From a virus (lineage: Duplodnaviria > Caudoviricetes), in the IMG/VR virus record IMGVR_UViG_3300037751_000502, positions 1 to 33,445 of that record: 33,445 nucleotides of DNA, one strand, 5' to 3'. The stretch's first letter is position 1, and each line of letters starts with the position of its first letter. Both the position numbers and the translations under genes were made by a program. The notes below the pieces were generated by a model. That model saw nothing but the letters and a program-made list of their open reading frames with translations. It was not told the origin of the DNA and made no database searches. Of the stretch, positions 1 to 31,754 are shown in pieces.

Positions 1-1205
1 ACCGCAAACTTGCCTGTCAGAAAATCGATAAGGTTAACCTTGCGTGCGTAGTCGGTATCCACATCCTCCACCCAATTGGTGCGTTCTGTCAGTACAGGGT
101 ACCCTCTGTACGTGGCAGCTTCTGTGGCCGGGGTGATGGCTTGCTCGTCCTCCTGAGAAAATTGCATCGTGGCTCGGGCCACCGAGTCCGTCATGTAGGG
201 CAAGTTGAAGCTCTCCTGCACCCTAGCCAGACAGACTGGGTATATCTTGGACCCGACCGGCCACGTATCGATTAGGGGCGACTTGATCGTGACCGAGTCG
301 GCCGCCACGGCGGTAATCTCTGCGGTCTCCCCCGCCTGACCGTACGCTACTCCCACCAGCCCACCAACTACGTAGTCCAGATTCGCAGTAGGTACAGAGA
401 GGGTGAGGGCCCCAGCAGATAAGGCAACAGGGGAGAGGTACCCTTCTGCCCACACCGGCACCCCATACGGACGAGCCTGCCAAAAAATAAGCAGGTTCTC
501 CATCCGGACGCGGTCGATATTGTTGCTGGCCAAGGTCTCGTACTCGAAGAACCGGCGCGGGTTCTCCCGAACCTTTACTCGTTGTTCTTTGCCAGAGTAC
601 GCCTCCAATACATCCGTCTTCCACTCCAGCCTCTCCACTACCGGAGTATCCCAGTTAGGGCCAAAAAACCAGCTGATCGCCCGGCGCCCTTGTATCTCTA
701 AGGTACCTGACCCTGAATTGAAAACGATTTCAAACGAGGCATCGATAGTCGGGGGACCGTCTACCTCCAGAACTACATCGTAGATATAGGAGCCCAGAGG
801 GGGCCACGAAAACAGAACGGCGGGGCCGTTAGTCAGCTCCAGCCCTTCCGCGTTCGAGGGGGTTACGCTCTGTAGTTGGTTGGCTACTAAGTACGCGTTA
901 AAAACCTCTACCTGAAGAGTCTGCGCACTTAGCAACGTCCCGACATTGATGCTTCTAGGAGCTACGTGTATTCGGTTGTAGAAGTCGTCGAAGTAGCTGC
1001 GCGCGACGCTGCCCGACTTGACGTAGGGCGTGGTCGACACCGGCCAGTTGGTTGTCATCGGCTGCGCGCCGGGGCTCGGCGTGGCGGCCCAGTAGACGAG
1101 GTCGTCGATCCACGCGTCGGTATAGTCGTACAGGTCGTCAGTCAGGTACGGGTTGTCGTGCCCGTAATCTGACGATCCCGCGAAGAAGCCTGTGATGACT
1201 GCCAC
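1..1205 (-). CDS. Tail-tip / virion structural protein (D3112/YuA-like), truncated by the window edge
   Basis: Not in the ORF track. Manual translation from GTG at 1205, directly after the TAA of the upstream gene, stays open to position 1: VAVITGFFAGSSDYGHDNPYL...SYFDDFYNRIHVAP...ERLEWKTDVLEAYSGKEQRVKVRENPRRFFEY. Confidence 0.8.
   Translation of the reverse strand, partial: MAVITGFFAGSSDYGHDNPYLTDDLYDYTDAWIDDLVYWAATPSPGAQPMTTNWPVSTTPYVKSGSVARSYFDDFYNRIHVAPRSINVGTLLSAQTLQVEVFNAYLVANQLQSVTPSNAEGLELTNGPAVLFSWPPLGSYIYDVVLEVDGPPTIDASFEIVFNSGSGTLEIQGRRAISWFFGPNWDTPVVERLEWKTDVLEAYSGKEQRVKVRENPRRFFEYETLASNNIDRVRMENLLIFWQARPYGVPVWAEGYLSPVALSAGALTLSVPTANLDYVVGGLVGVAYGQAGETAEITAVAADSVTIKSPLIDTWPVGSKIYPVCLARVQESFNLPYMTDSVARATMQFSQEDEQAITPATEAATYRGYPVLTERTNWVEDVDTDYARKVNLIDFLTGKFA
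719..732. promoter_or_regulatory. One-mismatch copy of the 14-bp palindrome (TGAAAACGATTTCA), inside a CDS
   Basis: AATTGAAAACGATTTCAAA at 716-734 is identical to 19193-19211. Confidence 0.55.
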
Positions 1206-2129
1206 TTACGGCCCCTCATACCGGATCGCCCAGCCGAAAGTACCTGTGTGGTTGATCATAAAACCGCCGTTACGCGCAGCTGCGTCTTTGCGATACCACG
1301 GGAATACCTTCCACTTGTCCGACCCGATGGTCAGGATGTCGCCCGGCGTCAGGTTGTCTACACGGCATCTTCGGGAGTGCTCCAGATCCGCGATCAGGCT
1401 CAACTTGCTAGACGGCCGACTCGCGTATGCCCGCATCGGGAGCAGGACAGACTCAGAGTTCCATACGCTAGGTAAAAGGGCTAGGAGTGGCGCTATGGGC
1501 TCTGCTCCGGGACCGGCATCCTCAACGCTCGATCCATACGCAACAACCCAATCTACGCCATCCAATTTTGCGTTCAGATACCAATTTCTGAGCCCTACGA
1601 AAGCTGCCCCTGTGCCATGAAACAGTGCCGCAGTCGTCATACGATTGTTACCAGTATTTCCTCCATTCGATGACGAGATGTATATAGGACCCCCTGCCGA
1701 TAACCCAGCACCGATGACGGTCGCCCCTATCGTAGCCCCGCACCATCCCCCCAGCCCGGCCAGAACCGGCACCGTCGACTTCCCGAAGGCCACCCACTGG
1801 TAGCTATCCACGTCGTAGTTGACGACCAAGTAGAGTTCTTGTGCGAAACCGAACACCTCATAAGTGCACGGAAAACTAATCTCACCGGTAGGAGACCCCG
1901 CCAGTGAGTAAATACGCCCGATCTGCACCACATACGGGGCGGGATTGCCGACCGCGTTGCTCTCGCATGCTAGGCAGGTGACGTTACTCCCCGTCACTTG
2001 TATCTGGAAGAACACGCCCGCTTTTGAGAGTACGTCCCCGGTCAATACCCAGCCATCGCTCTGCGCGTGGGTAAGCAGTGCAGTTCTGAGGTCAGCAAGA
2101 CTGGAGGCAGCGCCTGAGTAGTAGGCCAT
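1206..2129 (-). CDS. Virion structural protein, tail tip (D3112-like)
   Basis: 307 aa, MAYYSGAASSLADLRTALLTHAQSDGW...WKVFPWYRK...HTGTFGWAIRYEGP. Second gene after the tape measure. Confidence 0.8.
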   Translation of the reverse strand: MAYYSGAASSLADLRTALLTHAQSDGWVLTGDVLSKAGVFFQIQVTGSNVTCLACESNAVGNPAPYVVQIGRIYSLAGSPTGEISFPCTYEVFGFAQELYLVVNYDVDSYQWVAFGKSTVPVLAGLGGWCGATIGATVIGAGLSAGGPIYISSSNGGNTGNNRMTTAALFHGTGAAFVGLRNWYLNAKLDGVDWVVAYGSSVEDAGPGAEPIAPLLALLPSVWNSESVLLPMRAYASRPSSKLSLIADLEHSRRCRVDNLTPGDILTIGSDKWKVFPWYRKDAAARNGGFMINHTGTFGWAIRYEGP

Positions 2130-2142
2130 CGTGTTTGTCCTT

Positions 2143-2982
2143 TTATGCGTCGAGCCGCAGTGCGTAATAGTCGGTGTGGCCCGTGCGCGATACGCTCTGC
2201 ATCACCACGTAGGTTACTCCGCCAATGACGAGCGTGTTTTCAACGGCGTTGTTGAACCCGCTCACGTGGTAGACGCCGTCCAGTTGTCCATACAAGTTCG
2301 CCGTGTTGTCGTGGATCTCCACTGGGTGCAGCGGGTACTCACCACCCGTGTCGCGTGCTTGAGTCGTGCCACCGGTTATGTACTGGTTCCCCCATGGGTA
2401 ACAGTGCATGTTTATCCAGCCGGACGGCGTGCGCATCTGGCCCCGTGCGCTGTTACCCCGCAGGTAGAAGTCGTGCGTGGTCTCGCTGAACCGCGTGCCA
2501 GAGGCGCCGACCAACATACCCCCCGCGACCACCGGGTAGGGGAACTGACTGGGGCGGGCGTAGGGGAACATCTTGCCCAAGTACAGATGCTCGTAGACCG
2601 GCGTGCCGACCTTCATCGCCAGTACGATCCGCTGACCGTTCAGCGTGAGCCAGTAGTCGATCCGGTTGTTGTGCGCCGGGCAGCCCACCAGCGCCGCCCC
2701 CGGCTGCGTGTCGAACGTATTGCCCGGCACGTAGCCGGTGAATACCCCGGCCAGAAAGTTGTAGTAGTCCGCCCCGACATCGTGGTAGGTGCGGATGCCG
2801 ATAAAGATTTCCTCGGTGCCGGACAGCCCAATGCCCTTCAGGATCAACTCACGGTTCTCCGCTGCGGTGTCGTAGCGCAGCACCGTCCATCCGTTCGCGA
2901 CTGCAAAATCCTTGATCGTCTCAAGCATCTTGTAGTGCGCGAGCATCGTGGAATTATCCACAAAACCAATTTGATACGCCAT
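2143..2982 (-). CDS. Virion structural protein, tail tip (D3112/YuA-like)
   Basis: 279 aa, MAYQIGFVDNS...GWTVLRYD...YARPSQFPYP...GQLDGVYHVSGFNNAVEN. Directly after the tape measure; GAGG RBS. Confidence 0.82.
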   Translation of the reverse strand: MAYQIGFVDNSTMLAHYKMLETIKDFAVANGWTVLRYDTAAENRELILKGIGLSGTEEIFIGIRTYHDVGADYYNFLAGVFTGYVPGNTFDTQPGAALVGCPAHNNRIDYWLTLNGQRIVLAMKVGTPVYEHLYLGKMFPYARPSQFPYPVVAGGMLVGASGTRFSETTHDFYLRGNSARGQMRTPSGWINMHCYPWGNQYITGGTTQARDTGGEYPLHPVEIHDNTANLYGQLDGVYHVSGFNNAVENTLVIGGVTYVVMQSVSRTGHTDYYALRLDA

Positions 2983-3003
2983 GCTTTGCCCCTCTAATGA
3001 TTT

Positions 3004-6000
3004 TTAGCCTAGTGTCTGTCGCACTGCTCCGGCATTGCGCCGCAGGATGTTAAGGATTGTCTTCTCCCCCGCAGATGAGGTCAAGTAGTCGGCCGCCATC
3101 TTCGGGTCAATTACGTTGATGATCCGCACCCCGGCCCCGCCACTCTGCGGCTGCGCGGGAGCAGTCTGTGTGACCAGACCACCGTCTGCGAACGCGGGCA
3201 TGCTGGGCATACGCAACGTGGGCAACCAGTCATCCAGAACCCCCGCATTGATCGCCGACAACAGTGGCAACCACTTACGCGTCTGGGTTGCACGAGTGAT
3301 GTGCTCGCCGTGAGACACCCGAGCGATGATGGAGTCACTGGTCCCCGTCCCCGCTCCCCGGATCACACCGCCTTCCGCAAACGATCCTGCAAAGCTCTTC
3401 GCCAGCAAGAAAGCCGCGATCAGCGCCGCGACACCGATCGCTGCCGCACTACCGAACGAACCGACTGACGCGGCTGTCGCCGCAGGAGTCCATGCTGCCG
3501 TAGTTGTCGCTGCTGCAGGAACCTGCGCTGCCGCGACAGTACCAGTCGCTGCAACGGCGGACGTGGCACGAACCGTATCCGCAGCCGTAGCCGCAGTCGT
3601 AATCGTACTGATGGCGGAAACCTGCTGAGCGGCCACTTCTGCCGCCTTGGCCCCACTGTCCGGGCTGAAGATGCTCAGTAGGCCATCGATAAACCCACTA
3701 TCCCCGCCATCCCCCGTTGCGGTAGAGAATAGCTGGCGGAGGTTGTCGAAAGCCGTGCCAAATACCTTGAACACATCGGTGCCGAACTGTTGGATCACCT
3801 CCATGATCCCGGCCTTCCCGGAGAATATGTTTCTGATGCCCTCGCCGAGGTTGGTGAAGCTCTGCATCACCCCTGCGAAGAACCCTGTAGAGGGGTCACC
3901 CGCCGCGCCGCCCGGCCCGGCTATCTGGCCGCCAAGCGCACCCCCCAAGGAAGGAGCAAGGCCGCCTGCCGCTGCGACATCCTGCACATACATCGGGGTC
4001 AGGGGGGTACCGCCTCGCTGCAGTCCCGGCACGCCCGGACCGCCCGACACTAGGCTATTCGCTGCTGCGGTTGCCGCAGTGTTGGCGGTGGCCGCATCCT
4101 TGCCCGCCATGAACTTGGAGAGTACATCGCCAATCGAGCCCGTGCCCTTCAGCAGGCCGCCGAACGCCTTTTCGACAAGCTGCTCGGACGCCATCCGCCC
4201 CAGCGTCTCGGCGATCTGCAGGCCCAAGTTGCGGAAGGCATCCCCGATATTCTCGATGTCGCTGGCCGCGTTCCACAGGAAGTCGCTGAAAGCGCCACTC
4301 AGCTCTTCGTTGATCGTACCTGCCAGATCGGAGATTGTGTTGGTAAGGTCCAGATACTGCAGGTTTAGGAAGTTGAGGCGGCTGGACCACTGGGCCAACT
4401 GCTCCGGCGTCCCCGCCCCGCTGGCGATCTTCTCTTGCAGTTCGTTGATCGGGCCGACAAGGCTCTGTGCCGTGTCCCGGGCGAACGCGGCTACCTGCTC
4501 ACTGGCATCTGCGATGTCGATGAGGCCGAGCCGCAATTTGATATCGATTTCATTTCCGAACGCAGAGATAGCGGTGCGGTGTAGCTCGATCAAGTCATTC
4601 TGTAGCTCTACTGCCGCCTCGGACGCGAGTGCCAGCTTTTTCTCCAGAACGGCCCGTTGCGCTTCATCCTGAGTTGCCGCCAGTTCGGCGCGGATACTCT
4701 CCAGCCTCTGTTCAAGTTCAGGGCCGCTCTTGGCCATCTGGGTAAGAACCAGCGCCCCGACTTCGGTCGGCGCAGACAGACCGAGACGAAGTTTGGCACT
4801 GGTGCGGGAGATGAACTCATCTACTTCCGCCTCGACCCGGCCGAGCGACTTCAGTTCGATGACAATTGCGATCGTACGATCAAGCTTCGCCGTCTCTTCC
4901 GCCAGCTTTTGCAGGCGTGCAGTATCGTCCGCCAGTGCGGCGGCGGCCGTTTCCCCGTTCAGGCGACGACGCTCGGTCTGCAACCGGGTCATCAGCTCCT
5001 CGTGCTCTAGGTCCGTGCGCAAAAGCTGGGCGCGCTGTACGTCTCCGGTTTCCTCGGCAAGCTGGATCTCCAGATCCAGTATCTCCCGATTACGGTCTTT
5101 GATATCTGCTACGCGGTCACGGTCGACTTCGCCGGCAACGGCCCCCAGACGCTTTTCGAGAACGGCAATGTCTCCTCGGATGCGCGCCTGCGCCGCACGT
5201 GCCGACTCCTGCTGCGCCGCGCGGTCGTTGGGGTTGTTCTGTCCTGCTGTGTTGAACGCGTGCGTTGCCTCTACCAGTTCCTGCTGGCGTAGCTTGATCT
5301 CCCCCTTCAGCCCCTCTTCGATCAGGACCTTTCGGCCTTGGTAGTAGTCCTCCAGCGCCACCAGACCACGGGAGTAGCCGTCGCCGTATTCGTCTAGTTC
5401 CTGATTGATGGTTTCCCTCAGCAAACGAACGCGGGCGTCCAGAATCTCCTTCTCGGTACGCAGCCGGGCGAGGGCCAAATCACTACCGCTGATGTTTGCG
5501 GTGCCGTCCGCCGCTTCAGGCCCTTTGGTTGCGCCAAGGGTAATCGTACCTACAAGAGCGTTTTCGTCCCGCAGCCGGCGCAGAATCACCAGTACCGCTT
5601 CGACCTTGCCCGGGTCCATGGCATTGATCATACCGAGCAGGGTATCTCTAGAGGCATCTTTCTGGTTGGTGTCCCCCAGCTTGCTGAGCGCGGTATTTGC
5701 CTGCTGGATTTTTGAGGTAGCAGCGAGGGCTGCATTCTCCAGCACGACCATTTGCGCACGCGCGGCGGCGAGACTGACTTCTACGTCAGTACCGTCCGGT
5801 CCTTTGGTCTTGACCAGACCCCCATCCTTCGCTGCGGACATGGCTCGGCCCAGATCCTCGATCTGTGTCTTAAGTTCCGACAGTTGCTTTTTGGCCACCA
5901 CTGCAGGAAGTACCGCTGACTCAACAAGCGCAGCCATTTCGCTGGTAAAAATCTGCTTCAGTGCCGGAACGAAATCCTCTGCGGCCTCTTGAATTTCGTC

Positions 6001-8763
6001 GAAACTACCGATAACCCGTGCAGCGGCGGCGCCCTGTCTCTGTTCGATCTGGGACTGGGCTTCCGTCATATCTTGAAGCAGGGCAGTAAGCGCGTCCTTG
6101 TCTTTCTGTAGCTGATCGCGTGCCTGCCCCAGACCGAACGCATCGCCGATCTGCTCCATCGAGGCGATCTCTTTGTCGAGTTCTGCCACTCCCTTTCGGG
6201 CCTTGGCGATCTCCTCGGACAGCTTCTTGTACCGTACACTCAGGTCCGCGTTTTCGGCATCGAAACTCTCCTTGATGCCCTTGCTCTGCTCCCCCGCCAG
6301 CTTGCTGACCGCAAACTTATTGACGGCTTCGACAGACGCTTCTGCAGTCTCCTTTCGGCGACCGTCTGCCTGCTTGACCTTGACCCCGAACACTTCCGGG
6401 TCGAGCCCGCCCTGTGCCAGTGCTAGGTTGATGTACTCGTCCCGTAATGCCGCCAGCCTCTTGGTCTCGTCCTCTAGCTTTTTGTCGCGGATGCGCTGCT
6501 GCTGGTCGTGCTTACGCATTGCCTCCGAGGTCAGACCGACGGCATCTGTGACTTTCTGCCAAGCGTTGGCAAGAGGGCCCAGAAGACCCGTCATGTCCAG
6601 AATGGTAAAGATCAGGGCGCCCCACAATCCGAGGCTGAACAGCCGCATCAAACCGGCCATGATCTTTTTCAGGCCGGCGACGAGGATGGCCCCCGACGTG
6701 AGAACTTGCGCAGTAGATGCAGCGGTAAGCGCAGCGATTGCAGCGACTTCTGCTTCGGCAGCGGCGCGGGCGATCGCCACACGCTCTGCGTAATGGATAC
6801 GAGTAGCATTGAGGTCAGCGGCGAGGATGGTGCGACGAGCGGTATACACACTCTCGGCAAGCGCAATTTCGTCGCGTGCTGCCTTTTTGGCGACCCCGAC
6901 CCGCGCGGCGTAGGAAGCGTTCGCTGAAGTGATCTGGGCTGGGGTTGTCGCTACCGCCAGCGCCGCAGTGCGGGCATGGCTGGCCGCAATGATTGCGTTG
7001 GTCTCTTTAGCGTTCGCAGCAAGCAGGGCATTTGCACGGATACCCGCCGCGAGCGTCTTCTGAGTTCCGACAATCCGCTTCTGATCATTCAGGGCGAACT
7101 CGGCCGCCGTCTGCTGACCCAGTGCGGTGATCTTGGCAGTAGTGGCAGTCTCTTTGGCCTCCCGGGCCGCCGCCAGTACGAGGGAGTTGGCCTGTATCTC
7201 CTGTAGCCCGAGGTAGGCCGCCATCTGCTCTTTGAGCGCGGCCGAATGGGCTTTCGCTGCGGCGACTGCAGCAGAGCTTTGCGCGGTATTGGCATTCTGT
7301 GCCACGGTATTGGTGGCGGGAATGAACGGGCGAGAAGCCGCGCCGAGGATAACGGTAGAGGCAGAGGCGGCGAGTCCTGCGATGTGTGTTGCCGTTGCCT
7401 TGGCGCTATTTGAAATCGTTTGCAAACGGGTAGCAAACGCCTTCATGCCTGTGCCGTCAATTGCAGAAATCGCCGCGCGTACTGCCCCGAGCGTACCGAG
7501 CCACGTGGTCATGCTCCGGGCCATGTTCAGGGCGATCCACGCCGCCCCGATCTTGACCATGTTGTCCCAGTTGACATTCAAGTCGGCGACAAAGCGGACA
7601 AGGTCCACAAACGCCAGAGCCGCGCCGCCGACTGCTTCGGATATCCGAATCACGCCATCGAGCACTTCCGGACTATCTGCCCATTCCTGAAAGCGACGCA
7701 GCAGCGTGGTGACGACTGGGAGGGCCCTTTCCCCGACTTCGGAAGCCAGCGCAGTGAAGTGGTTACCGGTAATCTGGAGTTGCGCGTTGAACCCCTGCAA
7801 TACCGTTTGTTGTTCCTTGATCGCGGACAGGCCAGAAACTATACCGCTGTCAGCAAAACCGATATTCTTGTCCAGAATGGTGTTGTTGGTGTCCTGCGTC
7901 AGCTTGTTGATCAACGCAGCGATACGGCCGCCACCGGTTATCTGCTCCGACACACGCGCCCGGTCCACGTTACCGAGCGTACGCAGCACCGCTAGGTAGT
8001 CCTTCAGCGCCTGTACGGGCTTGTCCTGAACGTGGTCAGCCCACTTCTCTGCCGTTGTCCCCATTAGCTGCGCGAGTTGGGAAGACTTCGTTTGCAGGTC
8101 AAGGAATACCTTGCTGAATGACGTACCGATCGTTTCCAGCGTCAGGCCCAGATCGACACCGGTCGCGGCAAGGCCCAATGACTCAGACAGGTCCAAGCCT
8201 ACGCTGGCATCACCGATCCGTTGCACCACGTCAAGGAGGTCTTCGCCTGATGCCGTGGAGTTGTTCGACAGCTCGTTGAAGCCGGATACGATACTTTCTG
8301 CATCCTTCAGGCCGATCTTGAAGATGTTGGTGATCTTGGCGATACCGTTCGCCGCGTTCTCCACCGACACGTCCAGCACCGATGACATGCGCGAGGCGGA
8401 ATCGGTAAATGCGAGCAGGGCTTCAGAGCCTTGATTGCCCAGACCAAGCTGCCCGCCCACCGCAGCTATTTTCGCGAGGTCGGTTGCGGTGACATTGACT
8501 TGGCGGGACAAAACACGCAGAGAAGAACCAAGTTGCTGGATAGTTGCATCCGTGAACTCAGTGGTCTTCTGTACGTTGATGAGTTCTTCTTGCAGATCCG
8601 CCGCAGAGGTGATCTGGAAGGAAGCCGCGCGGAAGGCGACAATGGAGGCCGTGATGGCCCCCACAAACCGGATGATTCCGGATTCTATCGCCCTGAGCGG
8701 CAGCGTGACATTGTCGTGTGCATTGACATCAATGTCGATGTTGTTGCTACTTTTCTTGGCCAT
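3004..8763 (-). CDS. Tail tape measure protein (1919 aa)
   Basis: Very long Ala/Leu-rich helical ORF with a TP901-type N-terminal region (INVQKTTEF...DLAKIAAVGGQLG) and C-terminal FAEGG...GTGTSDSI...GEH motifs. ATG at 8763 (MAKKSS) has a GAGG RBS and is preferred over the track start at 8826. Confidence 0.95.
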   Translation of the reverse strand: MAKKSSNNIDIDVNAHDNVTLPLRAIESGIIRFVGAITASIVAFRAASFQITSAADLQEELINVQKTTEFTDATIQQLGSSLRVLSRQVNVTATDLAKIAAVGGQLGLGNQGSEALLAFTDSASRMSSVLDVSVENAANGIAKITNIFKIGLKDAESIVSGFNELSNNSTASGEDLLDVVQRIGDASVGLDLSESLGLAATGVDLGLTLETIGTSFSKVFLDLQTKSSQLAQLMGTTAEKWADHVQDKPVQALKDYLAVLRTLGNVDRARVSEQITGGGRIAALINKLTQDTNNTILDKNIGFADSGIVSGLSAIKEQQTVLQGFNAQLQITGNHFTALASEVGERALPVVTTLLRRFQEWADSPEVLDGVIRISEAVGGAALAFVDLVRFVADLNVNWDNMVKIGAAWIALNMARSMTTWLGTLGAVRAAISAIDGTGMKAFATRLQTISNSAKATATHIAGLAASASTVILGAASRPFIPATNTVAQNANTAQSSAAVAAAKAHSAALKEQMAAYLGLQEIQANSLVLAAAREAKETATTAKITALGQQTAAEFALNDQKRIVGTQKTLAAGIRANALLAANAKETNAIIAASHARTAALAVATTPAQITSANASYAARVGVAKKAARDEIALAESVYTARRTILAADLNATRIHYAERVAIARAAAEAEVAAIAALTAASTAQVLTSGAILVAGLKKIMAGLMRLFSLGLWGALIFTILDMTGLLGPLANAWQKVTDAVGLTSEAMRKHDQQQRIRDKKLEDETKRLAALRDEYINLALAQGGLDPEVFGVKVKQADGRRKETAEASVEAVNKFAVSKLAGEQSKGIKESFDAENADLSVRYKKLSEEIAKARKGVAELDKEIASMEQIGDAFGLGQARDQLQKDKDALTALLQDMTEAQSQIEQRQGAAAARVIGSFDEIQEAAEDFVPALKQIFTSEMAALVESAVLPAVVAKKQLSELKTQIEDLGRAMSAAKDGGLVKTKGPDGTDVEVSLAAARAQMVVLENAALAATSKIQQANTALSKLGDTNQKDASRDTLLGMINAMDPGKVEAVLVILRRLRDENALVGTITLGATKGPEAADGTANISGSDLALARLRTEKEILDARVRLLRETINQELDEYGDGYSRGLVALEDYYQGRKVLIEEGLKGEIKLRQQELVEATHAFNTAGQNNPNDRAAQQESARAAQARIRGDIAVLEKRLGAVAGEVDRDRVADIKDRNREILDLEIQLAEETGDVQRAQLLRTDLEHEELMTRLQTERRRLNGETAAAALADDTARLQKLAEETAKLDRTIAIVIELKSLGRVEAEVDEFISRTSAKLRLGLSAPTEVGALVLTQMAKSGPELEQRLESIRAELAATQDEAQRAVLEKKLALASEAAVELQNDLIELHRTAISAFGNEIDIKLRLGLIDIADASEQVAAFARDTAQSLVGPINELQEKIASGAGTPEQLAQWSSRLNFLNLQYLDLTNTISDLAGTINEELSGAFSDFLWNAASDIENIGDAFRNLGLQIAETLGRMASEQLVEKAFGGLLKGTGSIGDVLSKFMAGKDAATANTAATAAANSLVSGGPGVPGLQRGGTPLTPMYVQDVAAAGGLAPSLGGALGGQIAGPGGAAGDPSTGFFAGVMQSFTNLGEGIRNIFSGKAGIMEVIQQFGTDVFKVFGTAFDNLRQLFSTATGDGGDSGFIDGLLSIFSPDSGAKAAEVAAQQVSAISTITTAATAADTVRATSAVAATGTVAAAQVPAAATTTAAWTPAATAASVGSFGSAAAIGVAALIAAFLLAKSFAGSFAEGGVIRGAGTGTSDSIIARVSHGEHITRATQTRKWLPLLSAINAGVLDDWLPTLRMPSMPAFADGGLVTQTAPAQPQSGGAGVRIINVIDPKMAADYLTSSAGEKTILNILRRNAGAVRQTLG
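4539..4552. promoter_or_regulatory. One-mismatch copy of the palindrome (TGATATCGATTTCA), inside the tape measure gene
   Basis: 13 of 14 positions match TGAAATCGATTTCA. Confidence 0.45.
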
Positions 8764-9465
8764 ATTTGGTACCCTCTCCGAGCGCGTCCATGTGTTCTTT
8801 GGTCGCATCCTTGCCCGAGAGGACACCAGCTATGGCGACACTCGTATCTACAACGTAGTCGAGACGCTTCCTGCAATCCCTGCGATGCACCGACCGCAGG
8901 TATAACCGAAACTTCTCAACGGTGTAGTCCGGTATATCACTTTCGTGGTGCCCGTACTCGATCAGAAGCGATACTGCGTCTACTAACTCCTCCGGGTCCG
9001 CCGCACCTTGCTGATCTCGGCGGCGACGGTCGCGGCTTCGCTTTGCGGAATTTCTGCGCGAGCCAGCATCCCCGTCAGCAGCGGTGCTACCCGGGCGGTA
9101 AAAAAAGCGCGATTCACCTCACCGATCTTCATGATCAGTGCAAGCCCCTCCGCCGTGTCGAGTTCCCCCACCCGCTCCACAGACAGGTCCGTCATGGTAG
9201 CGATCAGTTGGTTGATGTCGTTGGGGAAATTTGAAATCAATTGCAACATCTTCACCGGGTCACCGATCGGGATCGACAAGTTACCTTGCGAGTCCGTACC
9301 GAGAATGCCGATGACCTTGGTCAGTAGCCCCAGCACAAACTCGTTGTGCTTCATCCGGACCTTGTTGACCGTGACGACGGTACCATCTTCCAGTCGTACA
9401 TCCGTTGCATCATTGAAAAGCGAGTCGGAGACTTGCGCAGCATTTGTGGCAGTTTGCGTTTCCAT
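8747..9465 (-). CDS. Tail assembly chaperone, long -1 frameshift product (lambda gpGT analogue)
   Basis: The -1 frame is open from the T-TTT-TTT run (9100-9106) to TAG at 8747: ...ADPEELVDAVSLLIEYGHHESDIPDYTVEKFRLYLRS...GTKYGQEK. It fills the gap before the tape measure. Confidence 0.8.
8983..9465 (-). CDS. Tail assembly chaperone, short form (gpG analogue), 160 aa
   Basis: Between the major tail and tape measure genes; METQTATN...EVNRAFF...KVRRTRRS. Confidence 0.85.
   Translation of the reverse strand: METQTATNAAQVSDSLFNDATDVRLEDGTVVTVNKVRMKHNEFVLGLLTKVIGILGTDSQGNLSIPIGDPVKMLQLISNFPNDINQLIATMTDLSVERVGELDTAEGLALIMKIGEVNRAFFTARVAPLLTGMLARAEIPQSEAATVAAEISKVRRTRRS
9100..9106 (-). other. Programmed -1 ribosomal frameshift slippery site T TTT TTT
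   Basis: GCT TTT TTT ACC forms an X XXY YYZ heptamer in the correct phase within the chaperone gene. Confidence 0.8.
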
Positions 9466-9501
9466 AGTGTCACCGATACCTTGAATGGTCCTGCGTATGG
9501 T

Positions 9502-9524
9502 AAAGGGGCCGGCGAACCGGCCCC
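9502..9524 (-). terminator. Hairpin or weak intrinsic terminator after the major tail gene
   Basis: GGGGCCGG-TTCG-CCGGCCCC followed by TTT. Confidence 0.65.
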
Positions 9525-9553
9525 CGTCCAACTAACCCCGCATTACTGGGGGA

Positions 9554-10315
9554 TTAGAAATTGCGCTGACGGAAGAACTTGGAGCCGGAGGTGCGGAGCG
9601 GATCGGCAAGGATCGTGCCCTTCATATCGACCGAAGCCAAGTCTTCATTCAACAGGCCGTAGCCGGTCAGCGGGTCGAACTGCGCCTTGAAGATGTCGAT
9701 GACAACCTTCGAGTCATCCACCGTGTTCAGGCCCTCGAAGCGCAGCCAACGTTCCGGCGCGGCCGACGACATGAACGCGTCCATCTGCGTGTACGACGCA
9801 AAGGTGTAGGCCACGTGCAGCACTTCTGCAGCCGTGATGGCACCGGTCGACAACGGAGTGATGGCGCCATTGACTGCATCGACGGTGTAGTCGGTATCCA
9901 CCACGTAGGTCGTGGTGCCGGGGGCACCCGCAACGTCGTCCTTGACCACAACCGAGGTCACGCCGGGGTGGGCCAGTGCATACTTCTGGTCGAGGCCGGC
10001 GGCCGCGACGGTGACAACTTCGTCGGTCACGGTGGAGCCGGTCACGGATGCCTTGGTGCCCCACAGACCGAGCGCGAGGTTATCGAGGGACAAGTTCTCC
10101 AGCTTGAAATTGAACTTGCCCTTCTTTTCCTTGATGATCGTAAGGTCGGTCAGGCGCGAGCCAGATTCCGATTCCTTGTGCTCGAAAATCGAAGTCTCGA
10201 TGTCGATCGTGAGTTCGGGCACGTTGCCCACCGCGAGGAAGCCCTGCGGGGCGCCCGCCACGGTGCGGGTGGCTACGAGCAGACTGCCCTGTCCGGAATA
10301 GTAATTGTTCGCCAT
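9554..10315 (-). CDS. Major tail (tube) protein
   Basis: 253 aa, MANNYYSGQG...VGNVPELTI...HKESESGSR...LRFEGLNT; AAGGAG RBS; located before the chaperone. Confidence 0.9.
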   Translation of the reverse strand: MANNYYSGQGSLLVATRTVAGAPQGFLAVGNVPELTIDIETSIFEHKESESGSRLTDLTIIKEKKGKFNFKLENLSLDNLALGLWGTKASVTGSTVTDEVVTVAAAGLDQKYALAHPGVTSVVVKDDVAGAPGTTTYVVDTDYTVDAVNGAITPLSTGAITAAEVLHVAYTFASYTQMDAFMSSAAPERWLRFEGLNTVDDSKVVIDIFKAQFDPLTGYGLLNEDLASVDMKGTILADPLRTSGSKFFRQRNF

Positions 10316-12294: not shown

Positions 12295-12308
12295 TGAAAT
12301 CGATTTCA
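12295..12308. promoter_or_regulatory. Perfect palindrome TGAAATCGATTTCA (copy 1)
   Basis: Intergenic, 15 nt upstream of ATG 12279. Confidence 0.85.
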
Positions 12309-13012: not shown

Positions 13013-13495
13013 CTATCGATTCTGATTCGTTACGTAGTTCAGTATGTTGCTGACCGTGCCAGAACTAACGCCATACTTCTCTGCGAGTTGCCGCATAGTA
13101 TGGGTCGTACCGTCGATCCGCAACTGCCGTAGTTGCTCATCCGTCAGTTTACTCTTTGCTCCGGTGCCCGGATGGGGTCCGCTTCTGCTTCGCCTACCTT
13201 TAGCAAGCATGTCTGCAATATTGTCCGCCTGTGTCCCCAAAAACAGATGATCTGGGCGGACACACTGAGGGTTATCACATGTGTGCAGAACCTTTAACCC
13301 TTCAGGTACGGGACCGTTGTGGATCTCCCACGAAACACGATGGGCATATAGCGTCCCTTCCCCGCGCCGCCCAGCGCCAATAAGACCGTATCGCTTACTG
13401 CCATCGCGCCCTCTAGTACGGTTTGCCGTCCACAGCCAGCAACTGCCTGTACGCGAAACCTTAGGCCAAAACCGTTGCTCTAGCGAGCCGTGCAT
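13013..13495 (-). CDS. Free-standing HNH homing endonuclease with C-terminal HTH
   Basis: CWLWT...YAHRVSWEIHNG...VLHTCDNPQCVRPDHLFLGTQADNIADM...RQLAEKYGVSSGTVSNI. Confidence 0.93.
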   Translation of the reverse strand: MHGSLEQRFWPKVSRTGSCWLWTANRTRGRDGSKRYGLIGAGRRGEGTLYAHRVSWEIHNGPVPEGLKVLHTCDNPQCVRPDHLFLGTQADNIADMLAKGRRSRSGPHPGTGAKSKLTDEQLRQLRIDGTTHTMRQLAEKYGVSSGTVSNILNYVTNQNR

Positions 13496-14528: not shown

Positions 14529-14542
14529 TGAAATCGATTTCA
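14529..14542. promoter_or_regulatory. Perfect palindrome TGAAATCGATTTCA (copy 2)
   Basis: Intergenic, 16 nt upstream of the capsid ATG. Confidence 0.85.
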
Positions 14543-17136: not shown

Positions 17137-17150
17137 TGAAATCGATTTCA
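17137..17150. promoter_or_regulatory. Perfect palindrome TGAAATCGATTTCA (copy 3)
   Basis: Intergenic between the portal stop and the RBS of the next gene, 16 nt from the ATG. Confidence 0.85.
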
Positions 17151-17160
17151 ACGTCCGTGT

Positions 17161-19146: not shown

Positions 19147-19176
19147 ATCATATACCAGCTTGACAGAACGTAGCAA
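19147..19176 (-). promoter_or_regulatory. Candidate sigma70-type promoter of the virion operon
   Basis: TTGCTA-N18-TATGAT between the strong terminator and the first virion-operon gene. Confidence 0.45.
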
Positions 19177-19195: not shown

Positions 19196-19209
19196 TGAAA
19201 ACGATTTCA
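19196..19209. promoter_or_regulatory. One-mismatch palindrome TGAAAACGATTTCA upstream of the candidate promoter
   Basis: Intergenic; flanked by T and A to give TTGAAAACGATTTCAA. Confidence 0.7.
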
Positions 19210-19221: not shown

Positions 19222-19246
19222 AAAAAAAAAGCCCGCCGAAGCGGGC
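19222..19246 (-). terminator. Strong rho-independent terminator ending the accessory block
   Basis: GCCCGC-TTCG-GCGGGC followed by T9. Confidence 0.92.
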
Positions 19247-19297
19247 TCTGTGGTGACGCGTGGGCGTTCACCGACAAAATGCGTTGTTCAATTGGGG

Positions 19298-20931: not shown

Positions 20932-20945
20932 TGAAATCGATTTCA
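20932..20945. promoter_or_regulatory. Perfect palindrome TGAAATCGATTTCA (copy 4)
   Basis: Its TGA is the stop codon of gene 20943-21167; 23 nt upstream of ATG 20908. Confidence 0.85.
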
Positions 20946-21167
20946 CTGCTTGGGCAGCGTGTATTCGCCGTCGTGTCGTACGCGAAGGGGGATATCGTCC
21001 GGGTAGGCCCGAAACCACTCTTCCTCATAGCTGCCGGGCGTCGGGGCGATTGCACAGCGGTGTATGTCTACTCGGTACAGCCGGGCAAGCTCCTCCGCCC
21101 CGACATAGTGACACTTGCCATCTGCTAAGGGCTGGGACCACCCCGGGTACAGCACATATCTTGGCAT
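20943..21167 (-). CDS. Hypothetical protein, single RYxLxPG...DG..HY domain
   Basis: MPRYVLYPG...DGKCHYVGAEELARLYRV...LRVRHDGEYTL; AGGAG RBS. Confidence 0.7.
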   Translation of the reverse strand: MPRYVLYPGWSQPLADGKCHYVGAEELARLYRVDIHRCAIAPTPGSYEEEWFRAYPDDIPLRVRHDGEYTLPKQ

Positions 21168-21176
21168 GATGCTCTC

Positions 21177-21782
21177 CTACTCCTTTCGTCTGACACGTAT
21201 GATTCGCTTGCTGAAGTCTTGCGGGGGCGCCGTCTTTTTAGGGGGCGTCTGCTCTTCGTAAGGGTGTAGTAGGTTGTAGTCCCCGTCCGGCCTAGGATGC
21301 AGATGGATGTCGTTGTGCATCTGCTCGTACCCAAACATCTCGTCTGACTGCCCAACAATTACGCAGGGTCCGTTGCGAGGGACCCGGTATAGGTTCCTCA
21401 ACTGGTTGGCACTGATATAGTGTAGCTGCCCATCGAGGTTACTGATCACGCTACCCGGGTGCAGAATGTACCGTACCGGGGGGTCATAGTCCTCATCCTC
21501 CTCCGGATCTCCCTCGTCCTCCTCCTGATCGGCCTCGTCGTGCCTCCCATCGTAAACGTAGTTGCTATTGTATCCGCCATCATGGTGCAGCTCCGTTGTT
21601 CGTACCTGTAGTACGCCACCTACTGGAGGATAGAGGTGTACGTCGTCCGCCTGCGTAGGGGTTTCCTCCGATGCGGGGTCAAACTCGACGACGCCGTGCC
21701 GCATAGCCAGCGCGGCGGCGCTGTAATACATACTGCTACCGTCCTCTTCCGTACCGAAGCCGGCATGTGCAATATACCTCAT
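21177..21782 (-). CDS. Hypothetical protein with two copies of the same domain and an acidic linker
   Basis: MRYIAHAG...DGSSMYYSAAALA... and RYILHPG...DGQLHYISANQLRNLYRV...HLHPRPDGDYNL. Confidence 0.7.
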   Translation of the reverse strand: MRYIAHAGFGTEEDGSSMYYSAAALAMRHGVVEFDPASEETPTQADDVHLYPPVGGVLQVRTTELHHDGGYNSNYVYDGRHDEADQEEDEGDPEEDEDYDPPVRYILHPGSVISNLDGQLHYISANQLRNLYRVPRNGPCVIVGQSDEMFGYEQMHNDIHLHPRPDGDYNLLHPYEEQTPPKKTAPPQDFSKRIIRVRRKE

Positions 21783-22144
21783 GTTCTGACTCTCCTGACC
21801 CGCACCTTGGCGGGTGTCGCCACCTTGACCTGAAGGTCGTCAATATGTCTAGTCAACTGGAGCGCCTTGCGTGTCACCCATTCGTCTTGCGGTAGGTGGC
21901 ACCCGGTCTCTCCCGCCCAATCTGCAAACTCTGCGTCGTAAAACCCAACCGTAACCCCATGCGCCTGCTGCAGCGTCGTCAGCTCATTGGCCCACACCTG
22001 CCATTGATCGTCGGAGACCACGGGGCTGTCCCGTACGTAGTACAGGTAAGAGTGAATCAGCATCTGTGACCGGCGCTGCTTGATCTTCTCTGCAACCGCT
22101 GCAGGCATGCGCGCGGCGCTGCGAACACGACGAATGCGCTCCAT
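21779..22144 (-). CDS. Stand-alone NAD-dependent DNA ligase domain Ia-like protein
   Basis: IHSYLYYVRDSPVVSDDQWQ resembles LigA HxYxYYVxDxPxISDxEYD; start at 22144 just after the upstream TAG. Confidence 0.7.
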   Translation of the reverse strand: MERIRRVRSAARMPAAVAEKIKQRRSQMLIHSYLYYVRDSPVVSDDQWQVWANELTTLQQAHGVTVGFYDAEFADWAGETGCHLPQDEWVTRKALQLTRHIDDLQVKVATPAKVRVRRVRT

Positions 22145-22146
22145 GG

Positions 22147-22563
22147 CTACACCGAGCAATGTACGCCCGACACGTATCGGACGTTGTCTGGATGAACAGC
22201 CCCTAGCTGCCAGAACCGATGTCGCCTTCCGCCCGCTACTTCGTAGCTGTCGGTCTGGGCGAGTAGTCCGCGCGTATGCAGATGATGGATGAAGTTGCGG
22301 CAATCCCGCATGGAGATCCCTGTAGCCAGTGAAATCTGCTTGGCTGTGGCCCGGCCGCCCCGGGCGAGGAAGGCCAGATAGATTTTCTGCGTATGCGACC
22401 CGTCGACAATCGCAACCGTGTTCTCTGGGTCGGCTACGTCACCCGTGACATGAGAGGGCCACCGATTTGCGGGCCCGTACATGACCGACATAACCCCTCG
22501 CCCAAAATCGTTGTACTCGGGAAGGTCCTGTGTGCTGTCGTTCTCTTCGACCGGTGTCGGCAT
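22147..22563 (-). CDS. Putative winged-helix DNA-binding protein
   Basis: QKIYLAFLARGGRATAKQISLATGISMRDCRNFIHHLHTRGLL...RRHRFWQL; GAGG RBS. Confidence 0.65.
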   Translation of the reverse strand: MPTPVEENDSTQDLPEYNDFGRGVMSVMYGPANRWPSHVTGDVADPENTVAIVDGSHTQKIYLAFLARGGRATAKQISLATGISMRDCRNFIHHLHTRGLLAQTDSYEVAGGRRHRFWQLGAVHPDNVRYVSGVHCSV

Positions 22564-22594
22564 GGCTTCCTCTTTTTGAAATCGATTTCAGTAC
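22561..22594. repeat. 34-bp direct repeat copy A (palindrome copy 5 at 22577-22590, RBS and ATG)
   Basis: CATGGCTTCCTCTTTTTGAAATCGATTTCAGTAC is identical to 31721-31754. Confidence 0.92.
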
Positions 22595-24528: not shown

Positions 24529-24542
24529 AATCGTTCCTTGTT

Positions 24543-24556
24543 TGAAATCGATTTCA
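24543..24556. promoter_or_regulatory. Perfect palindrome TGAAATCGATTTCA (copy 6)
   Basis: Intergenic, 14 nt upstream of GTG 24528. Confidence 0.85.
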
Positions 24557-24571
24557 ATTCTACCAGATGGT

Positions 24572-25079: not shown

Positions 25080-25152
25080 CTTTATTCTCCTCGTTCTCGG
25101 ATCGTGCTGGCGGCTTTGTACTCGTCGCTATCAGGTAGCGGGCCCTTGCATG

Positions 25153-27162: not shown

Positions 27163-27163
27163 C

Positions 27164-27430: not shown

Positions 27431-27442
27431 CTTCGCTCCCCA

Positions 27443-27955
27443 TCAACGTGCCGGGCAATGTTCCAGTTCATCAGCGGGGAATGTATGCACTGCCCCCCGC
27501 GCGGTGCTGGACTCGACGACGTACCCTTCCGGCGTGAATTCCGTAGAGTAGGTGCCGACGATTTTACCGCTCCATTGTGAGCCTTTGATTTTGCGCACGG
27601 TATCCCCCATCTTGAACTTCCCGGGAATGGCGGGGCGCCTATTAAGAACAAGGTTGTAGGTGCGGAGACTTTCGATCTCGGCTACCATTCCGTTACATTG
27701 CTCTGCCGTGGTCAGGTCCTCCAGCTCATGTACCGGGTAGCCCTGCCGAAAATACGGCGGATAGTCATGGTCGAATACGGATACTACCGCCGCACGAAGA
27801 TGAAGGATCTCATCAGCCATCGCGCCGATGAACTTGTCCCCCGTAACGTCCCTCCACGTCTCCCCATACCGAAACACTTCCTGACGGCCACCCACCTGCC
27901 GATAGGTGTATTTACCACCTTCTACCATAAGTTCTACCGCTTCACCGTTATCCAT
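27443..27955 (-). CDS. Fusion protein with a C-terminal DfrB / R67 type II DHFR-like SH3 domain
   Basis: FKMGDTVRKIKGSQWSGKIVGTYSTEFTPEGYVVES...GAVHTFP aligns to R67 [36 protein letters not shown]...GSVQIYP (recalled sequence); AAGGAGG RBS. Confidence 0.82.
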   Translation of the reverse strand: MDNGEAVELMVEGGKYTYRQVGGRQEVFRYGETWRDVTGDKFIGAMADEILHLRAAVVSVFDHDYPPYFRQGYPVHELEDLTTAEQCNGMVAEIESLRTYNLVLNRRPAIPGKFKMGDTVRKIKGSQWSGKIVGTYSTEFTPEGYVVESSTARGAVHTFPADELEHCPAR

Positions 27956-27968
27956 CGTCGTCCCCTCC

Positions 27969-28157: not shown

Positions 28158-28167
28158 GATGCTCCTT

Positions 28168-28181
28168 TGAAATCGATTTCA
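28168..28181. promoter_or_regulatory. Perfect palindrome TGAAATCGATTTCA (copy 7)
   Basis: Directly abuts the AAGGAG RBS, 10 nt from ATG 28157. Confidence 0.85.
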
Positions 28182-28198
28182 TTCTTACCACTGAACGC

Positions 28199-29652: not shown

Positions 29653-29659
29653 CCCCACC

Positions 29660-30652
29660 TTACCTCCCGGCAATCGTGATGGTCCTCGTGCGGTTATCTA
29701 CGCCGACCGAATGTTTGCAATCGATTTCAATAATCTGCTCCGCAACCTCATTGTGGTCCGCACTCTCGGGCGGGACGCACTGGAAGATGAACCCATCTTC
29801 CCAGTTGTACGGACTTTTCTCGAAAGACAGCGGAGACTCGTAAGCGCGGACGATGGACATCCGCTTGAGTCCGGTCACTTCGAGAATCTTGCTGTACGCC
29901 TTGCCCGCCCGGTAGAACGACCGCCTCGTTTCCACGTCCGGGGACGGGATGTTCCTCCTCCCCTCATTCACACATGCGGTGCTGTATAGAAAATCCAGCA
30001 ACATCGCGTAGCGCCCCAGCCTGACGTGCTGTGCCTGCCGCAAACCCCCTCCGTGGTAGGTAGGGTAGCCCGCGCCGTGCCAGTCATGCAGCAACCCGTG
30101 CGTAGCCTTCTGCATCGCCCGGTTCGGCCCATAGGTTACGTACTTGGGTTTGGCCTTGGCCTTGCCTTCGTACCGGTTTTCGTAAAAAGCGGCCCGGCAG
30201 ACGCCATCTTCCTCGGAAAGTCGGGTCGCAATACAGATAAAAGGGCTTTCAGAGTACGTAATCATGCGGCTGTACACGTAATTTGAGTCGATTTCGTGGG
30301 CCAAATAGATCGGCGCACCGTCCTTTTCCCGCAAAACATGGTCGTGAACGCAGATATCTACCGCCGCACCGGCGTTCCACAGGTGGTACGAGGGCTTGTT
30401 TGGGTCCTGATATTTGACGATTTTGGTGCTCAGCTCGGGTGAAATGTACCCGTAACTGATCGAAAATGGCCCTTTTTCGACCAAAAGTGGCTCCAAAATG
30501 GTGTCGCAGAGGTACATAATCTCTGCAATTTTGGTACTTTTGGGGTCCAAAAAGGGGTTTTTGTACCCATTTACCATCATCGAGTGGCAGATCATGAAGT
30601 CAGAGAGCAAAAAGTGCTCTGAAATACGTACAGTGGTAGGGTCAATCGCCAT
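29660..30652 (-). CDS. Peptidase M15-like protein with a duplicated, degenerate second domain
   Basis: RISEHFLLSDF...LCDTILEPL...ISYGYISPEL...SYHLWNAGAAVDI; second repeat RLGRYAMLLDF...SIVRAYESP; ATG 30652 with GGAGG RBS. Confidence 0.65.
   Translation of the reverse strand: MAIDPTTVRISEHFLLSDFMICHSMMVNGYKNPFLDPKSTKIAEIMYLCDTILEPLLVEKGPFSISYGYISPELSTKIVKYQDPNKPSYHLWNAGAAVDICVHDHVLREKDGAPIYLAHEIDSNYVYSRMITYSESPFICIATRLSEEDGVCRAAFYENRYEGKAKAKPKYVTYGPNRAMQKATHGLLHDWHGAGYPTYHGGGLRQAQHVRLGRYAMLLDFLYSTACVNEGRRNIPSPDVETRRSFYRAGKAYSKILEVTGLKRMSIVRAYESPLSFEKSPYNWEDGFIFQCVPPESADHNEVAEQIIEIDCKHSVGVDNRTRTITIAGR
29716..29729. promoter_or_regulatory. One-mismatch palindrome (TGCAATCGATTTCA) inside a CDS
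   Basis: TTGCAATCGATTTCAA, 15 of 16 matching the extended motif. Confidence 0.5.
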
Positions 30653-30890
30653 GGATATGCCCCTCCCGGATGACTGGGTAAAGCGCCAGAAACTTCTCTT
30701 CTGCCTGCTGTGTATCCGTCTCGCGCGCATGCTCCATCATTCCTAGTCCCGGCGTTAGGAATTCTGCGGGCATATCGATCATTGTCTCGTCAAACAGATG
30801 GATCACATACATCATGTCCGCATACCGATAGAAGATAGCCTGCACGATCTTCGGGACACTCTCCTCATCGCAACGTGTGAGTATCTTCAC
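30642..30890 (-). CDS. Hypothetical protein
   Basis: 82 aa; GTGA coupling to the upstream stop. Confidence 0.65.
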   Translation of the reverse strand: MKILTRCDEESVPKIVQAIFYRYADMMYVIHLFDETMIDMPAEFLTPGLGMMEHARETDTQQAEEKFLALYPVIREGHIHGD

Positions 30891-31183
30891 AGCATCCCCT
30901 CCTTGCGCAGGCGCTCAACGATCTGGTCCGCCACGGCGCGAGCAAGGTCCTCGTGGTACCGGTCTTTCTGCTCTCTCGGGGACAAGGTATCGGCCGGCCG
31001 CCTCTCAGGGGCCTGCTGCCGCCTGCGGATGCTGGCACATAGAGGGCAGGGCCACCCGTCTTGAAGCCAAAAGCCATGTTCGGCTACCTCGCCACAGATC
31101 GGCACGATACCCCCGGCTCGATGACGCGGCTCCGCCACTTCTGTGGTCTTGCTCCCACGCCGAAACCTGTCGATGAACCACAT
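30887..31183 (-). CDS. Hypothetical protein with a C/H/CxxC motif
   Basis: PICGEVAEHG...CPLCA; TAATG coupling. Confidence 0.65.
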   Translation of the reverse strand: MWFIDRFRRGSKTTEVAEPRHRAGGIVPICGEVAEHGFWLQDGWPCPLCASIRRRQQAPERRPADTLSPREQKDRYHEDLARAVADQIVERLRKEGML

Positions 31184-31557
31184 TACTTCTTCCTCCGTAC
31201 CTTTGTTATTGTGGGTATACCTTCAGGGGGTGGCGCCTCCCCATGCAACTTCTGTAGCCACTCCAGCGCCTTGGCTTTGGTGTCTCGCATTACTACAGCC
31301 GGGTTGTCCCCAAAAGCAACCGGCCCGCAGACTCCGGGTAGGTGGGTCTGCCCTGACCATTTCTTGCCAATGTGTGGCTGTGTCGACAACCCCACGATCC
31401 CGAACAATACGCTACCGATGTACAGGCAATGGGATGTCTTGTACTTCACCCATTTGATCGGGTAGGGCTCGTTCGCTTGCGGTATGCGGGTGCGCGTGAC
31501 TCGTCGTTCAGACGACGGCTCGGGCGCTGGCGAGCGCGTGCGGCGTATCCTGTCCAT
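31183..31557 (-). CDS. Hypothetical protein with basic tags at both termini
   Basis: MDRIRRTRS...TKVRRKK; G-rich RBS. Confidence 0.7.
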   Translation of the reverse strand: MDRIRRTRSPAPEPSSERRVTRTRIPQANEPYPIKWVKYKTSHCLYIGSVLFGIVGLSTQPHIGKKWSGQTHLPGVCGPVAFGDNPAVVMRDTKAKALEWLQKLHGEAPPPEGIPTITKVRRKK

Positions 31558-31723
31558 CTTCCCCCCCTTTTTCTGGACCTGCGGTAATACGTAATGTACG
31601 CTCCCGGGTGACGAACTTCGTACCGCACTTGACGCAACGCCGCCGTCGAATAACGATCCTGTACTCGGTCACCGTAGTCACCACGCGGGTGTCGCCGCCA
31701 CATTGGGGTACAGGGCAATCCAT
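31508..31723 (-). CDS. Stand-alone NrdR-type zinc-ribbon protein (no ATP cone)
   Basis: MDCPVPQCGGDTRVV...IRRRRCVKCGTKFVTRE matches the NrdR N-terminus (CP.C...TRV...IRRRR.C..C..RFTT.E). Confidence 0.75.
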   Translation of the reverse strand: MDCPVPQCGGDTRVVTTVTEYRIVIRRRRCVKCGTKFVTRERTLRITAGPEKGGEDGQDTPHALASARAVV

Positions 31724-31754
31724 GGCTTCCTCTTTTTGAAATCGATTTCAGTAC
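31721..31754. repeat. 34-bp direct repeat copy B (palindrome copy 8 at 31737-31750, RBS and ATG)
   Basis: Identical to 22561-22594; the palindrome TGA is the stop of the upstream gene. Confidence 0.92.

Follow-up and report, generated by a model that had tools for sequence, protein, structure and literature searches.

Introduction

Several temperate phages carry many copies of a binding site for one phage protein: the stoperators of mycobacteriophage L5, the phiC31 inverted repeats, the C1 operators of P1 and the centromeres of N15. We describe an array of this kind in IMG/VR virus record IMGVR_UViG_3300037751_000502, whose 33,445 nt (the window) hold 14 copies of a 14-bp palindrome, and in its relatives, together with an uncharacterised phage protein, protein A, that is our candidate binder. 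As in those systems, sites occur genome-wide, mostly at gene junctions and in some cases at promoters. Stoperators, which are asymmetric and oriented with transcription, and P1 operators, likewise asymmetric and oriented, differ from the window sites, which are perfect or near palindromes; N15, unlike the array here, has four sites and a complete SopAB system. We know of no stoperator, phiC31 or P1 repressor that joins a ParB-type DNA-binding domain (DBD) to a ribbon-helix-helix (RHH) domain, nor of even spacing kept up by filling gaps within coding sequences (CDSs).

KorB of RK2 offers a second comparison. Its proximal OB sites lie 4-10 bp upstream of repressed promoters, and distal OB sites act through CTP-dependent sliding (PMC11790492). 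Protein A resembles KorB in its predicted ParB-type DBD (structural Z 6.4/6.1), and OB, too, is a palindrome placed 4-10 bp from promoters or far off; the phage sites peak at 7-9 nt. Sliding by KorB depends on an N-terminal CTPase clamp and locking on KorA, whereas protein A lacks ParB_N and has an RHH C-terminus, and the phages have 23-56 evenly spaced 14-bp sites. With ParB-parS, Noc-NBS and SopB-sopC the likeness lies in the DBD fold (6s6h, Z 8.1), a 28-residue spacing between an arginine and the second helix, and a palindromic target. Protein A differs from them in having no CTPase domain, no ParA was found, the sites are even rather than clustered at an origin, and there is no sequence similarity. 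By its lack of a CTPase domain and of a detected ParA partner, protein A falls outside the ParB/KorB family; the sites fall outside the LacI and stoperator classes.

An evenly spaced palindrome in the window and its relatives

The window is a linear virus record (completeness 35%). Its genes lie on the minus strand and comprise a siphovirus head and tail set together with small accessory genes. Judged by its sequence, it is a fragment of an SM1/DLP5/SIO-2-like siphovirus; its capsid protein shares 53% identity with Samunavirus SM1-like phages and 42-46% with Vibrio SIO-2/VHS1-like phages, DLP5, RcZahn, HJ05 and RHph_I4. Eight palindromes are perfect, four have one mismatch and two have two, and all 14 coordinates and mismatch counts given in a preliminary description of the window proved right. 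Matches with up to three mismatches numbered 14 against a shuffle mean of 0.84 (maximum 5; 0 of 100 shuffles reached 14), and an iterative position weight matrix (PWM) recovered the same 14 sites with none extra. Gaps between sites were 1548-3820 nt, with a coefficient of variation (CV) of 0.30 compared with 0.90 for random placement (0/5000) and 0.91 under a junction-weighted null (0/3000). All eight perfect copies end 10-23 nt ahead of a start codon with a ribosome-binding site (RBS), as had been described, and the claim that two of them supply a TGA stop also held (Table 1). Imperfect copies had been placed mostly inside long CDSs: five do fall within coding sequence, and the exception, at 19196, lies between a terminator and a promoter.

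We examined 13 complete relatives. These amount to about 11 independent genomes, because Summit is a near copy of DLP5 and L338C of RHph_I4. The motif was conserved: all 13 bear their own variant of TG(C/A)A-N6-T(G/T)CA. With one PWM per genome, each held 23-56 sites (2.8-5.5 per 10 kb), and gap CVs were 0.39-0.71 compared with about 0.95 (p<=0.025 in each of the 13). In a de novo repeat count, SM1 and DLP5 each had a related palindrome as their top-ranking repeat, with 30 copies (TGCAA-N4-TTGCA) in SM1 and 31 in DLP5. Variants were lineage-specific: TGCAAGCGYTTGCA in SM1, TGCAATCAATTGCA in DLP5, TGCAATTAATTGCA in V-YDF132, TGCAACNNGTTGCA in the Rhizobium phages and TGCAATCGATTGCA in RcTiptonus. 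Between 40 and 76% of sites lay near a stop (22-32% expected), and site positions turned over between relatives while density remained constant. In 15 of 15 sequences, sites within CDSs were farther from junction sites than random (p<0.05 in 9); site coverage itself therefore seems to be selected. No such array was present in three outgroup phages whose capsid and portal are related (1, 3 and 1 hits; 2.2, 1.0 and 0.2 expected). The array is real and is a trait of the clade.

A full-text search for the exact motif matched no paper, and among the matches listed for Samunavirus, DLP5, repeats of RcZahn/RcTiptonus or SIO-2/VHS1, and ParB-like RHH phage proteins, none described the array or protein A. 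A bacterial genome scan returned three short contigs of metagenome-assembled genomes only, which gave no host assignment. RHph_I4 (L188-L193) and L338C (L199-L204) hold 8 and 13 extra copies whose spacer is shorter by one base (TGCAA-N3-TTGCA), as well as a second repeat, CGATCCTTTGTCAA, in 13 copies, which contains a -35 box.

The shape of the site, TG.AA-N4-TT.CA in some members, resembles LacI-family operators (PtxS, the CcpA cre), and the preliminary description had followed this lead: the sites might titrate a host LacI-family regulator. The central CG, invariant in LacI operators, is not kept, however. Across relatives the central dinucleotide is CG, CA/TG, TA or any base pair, and in the Rhizobium phages it is free. 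The variant tracks phage lineage and not host: RcZahn and RcTiptonus share a host and differ in variant, while TGCAATCAATTGCA is common to phages of Stenotrophomonas and of Rhodobacter, and the hosts of the clade span alpha- and gammaproteobacteria. A LacI helix-turn-helix (HTH) gene (PF00356) was detected in none of five complete phage genomes, where the control was detected in 10 of 14. On this evidence from the phage genomes, we consider titration or recruitment of a host LacI regulator very improbable.

Action in RNA, as a hairpin or as a protein site by the RBS, or spread as a copied mobile repeat, would suit the eight perfect copies that adjoin an RBS and the 34 nt common to the copies at 22577 and 31737. 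However, predicted hairpins had energies of only 0 to -3.1 kcal/mol and four sites formed none, five copies lie inside CDSs, and sites upstream of a -35 box would be untranscribed. No tRNA or Rfam match was found, and flanks were shared by only 1 of 91 site pairs. The RNA-level action that had been raised at first is unlikely on these grounds, and we find this explanation as a whole scarcely credible.

Protein A, a predicted ParB-type DNA-binding protein

Fifteen protein clusters were common to all 13 genomes. One of these is protein A, an uncharacterised core cluster (PHROG 17202; gp050 of SM1, gp066 of DLP5) whose gene follows ruvC in the replication module. The model of its core had a pLDDT (predicted local distance difference test) of 88.8. 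Residues 57-173 (VIA-align) matched the DBD of Caulobacter ParB-parS (6s6h) with a Z of 8.1 (root-mean-square deviation 2.6, 97 aligned), followed by Raf1 (7.8), Spo0J (6.8), KorB (6.4; 6.1) and SopB (5.6), and residues 174-232 matched the RHH proteins ArtA (Z 5.6) and MazE9 (5.5). ParB_N, the CTPase domain, was found in 0 of 13 members at E<=1 (12 of them full length); neighbouring genes do match it. The N-terminus is of low complexity, rich in Lys, Ala and acidic residues. The DLP5 protein has only about 40 residues ahead of the core; other members are longer, with an N-terminal extension, and the model covers the core.

The homodimer score was 0.68 compared with 0.00 for the best control, and runs agreed on at least 98% of contacts with pLDDT of at least 80. 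Of 30 solved homodimers, 20 attain the mark applied, as does 1 of 23 monomers. The predicted contacts lie along a long helix (47-75) and in the RHH. Protein A is thus predicted to be dimeric, with a ParB/KorB-type DBD, a ribbon-helix-helix and no CTPase domain. Sequence searches of the PDB with protein A gave low-complexity hits only, with no match to the core. In a protein atlas the neighbours of protein A were unnamed viral clusters (0.95) and a DUF1016/ParB-HTH cluster (0.82), which is a lead only. At E<=1e-10 the family comprised 1,078 clusters at 50% identity, by a profile that includes the low-complexity part.

A replication-module contig, G009, carries the same site as the window and a GWAK protein A, and its tetranucleotide profile correlates with that of the window at r 0.954. 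There was no blastn match between the two and the contigs cannot be joined; G009 might correspond to the missing half, from a close relative.

Evidence linking protein A to the sites

Of 80 viral loci around gene A, 77 held sites: 438 in total, where 19.4 were expected. The three outgroup phages that lack the array lack protein A as well. In 10 of 13 genomes gene A had an upstream site, at a distance of 56-193 nt; the background was 12-24% of open reading frames (ORFs). Among 62 non-redundant gene A loci (18 of the 80 were left out for short upstream sequence or duplication), 33 had an upstream site compared with 6.4 expected; the site held the -35 box in 6 and preceded a strong -35 by 6-9 nt in 14. 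A site over or just ahead of the -35 is the pattern of autoregulation.

The ParB residues R173 and G201 are described as ParB/Noc specificity residues (PMC7383237). They are 28 residues apart in 4 of 4 ParBs, and the distance from R104 to residue 132 is equally 28 in 51 of 63 proteins A. For comparison with the sites, 63 of 92 loci were placed on a tree (29 were excluded as having fewer than three sites, duplicated or gappy). Column 132 was the best of 180 predictors of base 6 of the half-site: Thr occurred with T in 45 of 45 cases, and all nine non-T motifs occurred with Ser or Ala. RcTiptonus has the only protein without R104 and is also the only phage with a relaxed G at site position 2. 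Where the neighbouring sites were of the variant seen in the window (L215-L222), the protein was mostly GWAK. The residue at the ParB G201 position tracking the site variant is suggestive and is not significant phylogenetically.

Other conserved phage proteins were considered as the binder. A MerR/Xis-like HTH protein encoded after the helicase gene occurs in 12 of 13 genomes, ParB-N proteins occur in 10 of 13, and in the window the site at 22577 precedes a weak winged helix-turn-helix (wHTH) ORF. The MerR-like gene was not detected in RcZahn, however, and had an upstream site in 0 of 7 cases; ParB-N is missing from three array-bearing genomes and is tied to terminase and methylase genes; and the wHTH ORF occurs in 0 of 13 relatives. 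It is decidedly improbable that one of these is the binder. The preliminary description had proposed that one protein binds along the whole genome, a claim supported by the results, with protein A as the putative protein. It had suggested looking for a LacI or HTH gene elsewhere in the genome: no LacI HTH was detected in five complete relatives, and the candidate that did emerge, with a predicted ParB-type DBD and an RHH, had not been foreseen. The candidate, protein A, is likely to be the binder of the palindromes.

Other core genes (L146:6109-6423, 6433-6978 and 9166-10287) encode PHROG 25619, the MerR/Xis-like HTH protein and an SSB-like (single-stranded DNA-binding) protein, PHROG 17226. 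The terminase gene of the clade is far from the portal gene and adjoins the ParB-N and methylase genes. In the window, 32823-33437(-) matched PHROG 624, 'DNA binding protein' (E 1.8e-6). As a binder this protein was dropped; it was not found in SM1, DLP5 or G001, and it looks to us like a pyrimidine-dimer glycosylase-type protein and not a regulator.

Promoter phasing and mode of action

Promoters were sought around 789 non-redundant sites (71 of 860 contexts were removed as near duplicates) and scored with approximate sigma-70 frequencies. The -35 box started at +21/22/23 in 11/37/24 cases, at +31/32/33 in 4/11/6 and at +42 in 3, on a background of 0.6 per position; that is, 7-9 nt past the site in 72 cases, 17-19 nt in 21 and, weakly, 28 nt in 3. 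Phasing was absent from the antisense strand (2 at +22). The site itself held the -35 in 20 sense compared with 6 antisense cases. Assuming standard spacing, phased sites centre near -50, -60 and -70.

The 10-bp periodicity upstream of the -35 would also fit a class I activator, with protein A touching the alpha subunit of RNA polymerase, and no phage RNA polymerase was among the annotated SM1 or DLP5 genes. However, the phased promoters come close to the consensus (scores 10-14) and would need no help, and the six gene A loci whose -35 lies in the site include the clade nearest the window. Activation is improbable. Repression is the likelier of the two, given how closely the phased promoters match the consensus and that the -35 is in some cases covered by the site; protein A probably represses at promoter-proximal sites. 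There is a precedent in p4 of phage phi29, which represses strong promoters from upstream.

We propose that dimeric protein A, on sites over or just upstream of the -35, would repress promoters, its own included. Since protein A lacks the clamp domain, KorB-like sliding would not be available, and fixed, evenly spaced sites every few kb may take its place. Sites would be placed 5' of an RBS where there is free sequence and otherwise written into codons. Copies without a promoter, 12 of 14 in the window, might serve as elongation roadblocks or bridging points and so keep the entire genome under a single switch, plausibly in a plasmid-prophage state or at the change from early to late expression. 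This role for the distal sites is held tentatively, and we would not rely on it. On balance we lean, by a small degree, towards the palindromes being operators, bound by protein A, of a clamp-less KorB-like global repressor in which even spacing replaces sliding.

Several results weigh against this reading. Co-occurrence of protein A and the array could be explained by shared ancestry, both being clade traits. Gene A lacks an upstream site in SIO-2, CAU_VPP01 and 1.215.A, and one other gene, that of the head protease, equals its count of 10 in the 13 relatives. Gene A is also absent from the window itself, to which it is linked through the non-overlapping contig G009. The Z of 8.1 is at the noise edge of the tool, Foldseek with protein A returned nothing under E 1e-3 and a profile-profile comparison (hhalign) with four ParBs failed (probability 0.13); the ParB link is for these reasons structural and predicted. 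The dimer score may reflect resemblance to solved RHH dimers. In the covariation test, which was post hoc, nine Ser/Ala proteins still pair with T, the tree gave five independent pairs (2 concordant, 0 discordant, 3 unchanged; p 0.5), and the PWM used for viral loci is biased against unusual site variants. About a tenth of sites overall, and 1 of 14 in the window, are promoter-phased; none of the 36 sites in DLP5 and none of the 20 in G001 passes the promoter cut, and fixed helical phasing upstream is equally a mark of activators. We found no induction switch, and one phage, UF_RH6, has been described as lytic.

Lysogeny and the plasmid state

Lysogens of DLP3 are stable, and DLP5 was recovered in phagemid form (PMC7326821). 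We found that NZ_CP071625.1 (L295, L328-L333), a 109-kb circular 'plasmid p7' of Rhizobium bangladeshense, encodes capsid, portal, terminase, DNA polymerase and gene A and carries 54 sites; by this content it is an unrecognised phage-plasmid of the clade. It had no ParA or integrase hit. Among five complete genomes, none had a tyrosine integrase and none had ParA (PF13614), where the positive control was detected in 14 of 14; the clade core includes an AAA ATPase of another kind.

Protein A might instead bind the sites mainly to organise, tether or segregate the chromosome, as a dispersed centromere or nucleoid scaffold, with repression confined to autoregulation. Even spacing with gap-filling in CDSs, turnover of positions at a kept density, the predicted ParB-type fold, the low-complexity Lys/Ala/acidic N-terminus and the plasmid-like state of relatives would all fit. 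However, no ParA was found in the five genomes, protein A has no CTPase domain, and partition leaves the promoter phasing unexplained. Protein A (gp62) is also absent from the protein table of DLP3 ghost particles, a weak point because the ghosts are DNA-free. We regard a mainly organising role as unlikely. A mixed form is possible though doubtful: a clamp-less ParB (DBD-RHH dimer) on an evenly spaced grid of 25-55 fixed sites, in place of CTP-driven sliding, that silences, bridges and maintains a ParA-free plasmid prophage in a large clade of proteobacterial phages of 80-110 kb, site and protein drifting together at the ParB switch residues. The repressor and organiser roles named in the preliminary description both fit the results, and sequence does not tell apart repression in lysogeny, a switch from early to late genes and organisation of the chromosome.

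Other features of the window

Sites and associated elements are listed in Table 1. The endonuclease gene headed by the site at 19196 also has upstream sites in G001, G005 and SM1. At the accessory-region junctions with the sites at 22577 and 31737 (22573-22594 region; 31721-31754), 34 nt are identical (4 nt, site, RBS and ATG); the repeat is a duplicated expression cassette and could act as a recombination boundary.

Table 1. Palindromic sites and neighbouring transcription signals in the window
Feature	Position	Strand	Remarks
Site, 1 mismatch	719..732		Inside tail assembly gene 3-1205(-)
Site, 1 mismatch	4539..4552		Inside tape measure gene 3004-8826(-); retained in near-identical L141
Site, 2 mismatches	7411..7424		Inside tape measure gene 3004-8826(-)
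Site, 2 mismatches	9232..9245		Inside tail chaperone gene 8983-9531(-)
Perfect site	12295..12308		15 nt before start of small gene preceding head-tail adaptor
Perfect site	14529..14542		16 nt ahead of the major capsid gene (13559-14512); L142 has a variant site at this junction
Perfect site	17137..17150		Between portal and gene preceding head protease
Sigma-70-like promoter, predicted	19147..19176	-	TTGCTA-18-TATGAT; 9/12 matches, score 9.9
Site, 1 mismatch	19196..19209		19 nt upstream of -35 box (second helical phase), past terminator; heads endonuclease-portal genes
Intrinsic terminator-like hairpin and U-run	19228..19249	-	
Perfect site	20932..20945		Supplies the TGA stop of ORF 20943-21167(-)
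Perfect site	22577..22590		13 nt before wHTH-like ORF 22147-22563
Perfect site	24543..24556		Directly after extended -10 element TGGTAGAAT; over predicted start point
Perfect site	28168..28181		10 nt before a start codon
Site, 1 mismatch	29716..29729		Inside ORF 29660-30730(-), PHROG 894
Perfect site	31737..31750		Supplies the TGA stop of ORF 31748-32104(-)

Contig G003, 96-99.9% identical, was compared with the window at 13013-13495 and 16575-17120; it lacks the HNH gene after the capsid gene and a short stretch at 17152-17291, which by this comparison are recent insertions. The ORF at 27443-27955(-) would encode a 170-aa protein that joins an N-terminal PHROG 3052 part to an R67 dihydrofolate reductase-like domain (PF06442, E 1.4e-15) at the C-terminus. 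The N-terminal NAD-binding domain of DNA ligase occurs by itself at 21779-22303(-) (PF22745, E 2.8e-24), with a weak match in SM1 too. Lone NAD-binding ligase domains are candidates for NAD-related counter-defence.

Significance

The analysis names a candidate master regulator and its operator for an unstudied phage clade, with cultured members that infect Pseudomonas, Stenotrophomonas, Vibrio, Aeromonas, Rhizobium and Rhodobacter. Therapy has been proposed for some of these phages, and some can lysogenise without an integrase. It may also provide a natural test of the purpose of the ParB clamp: KorB slides, and protein A appears to be clamp-less with evenly spaced sites. The dozens of putative cognate pairs of protein and site would form a series for the study of ParB specificity and a source of orthogonal repressors and DNA labels.

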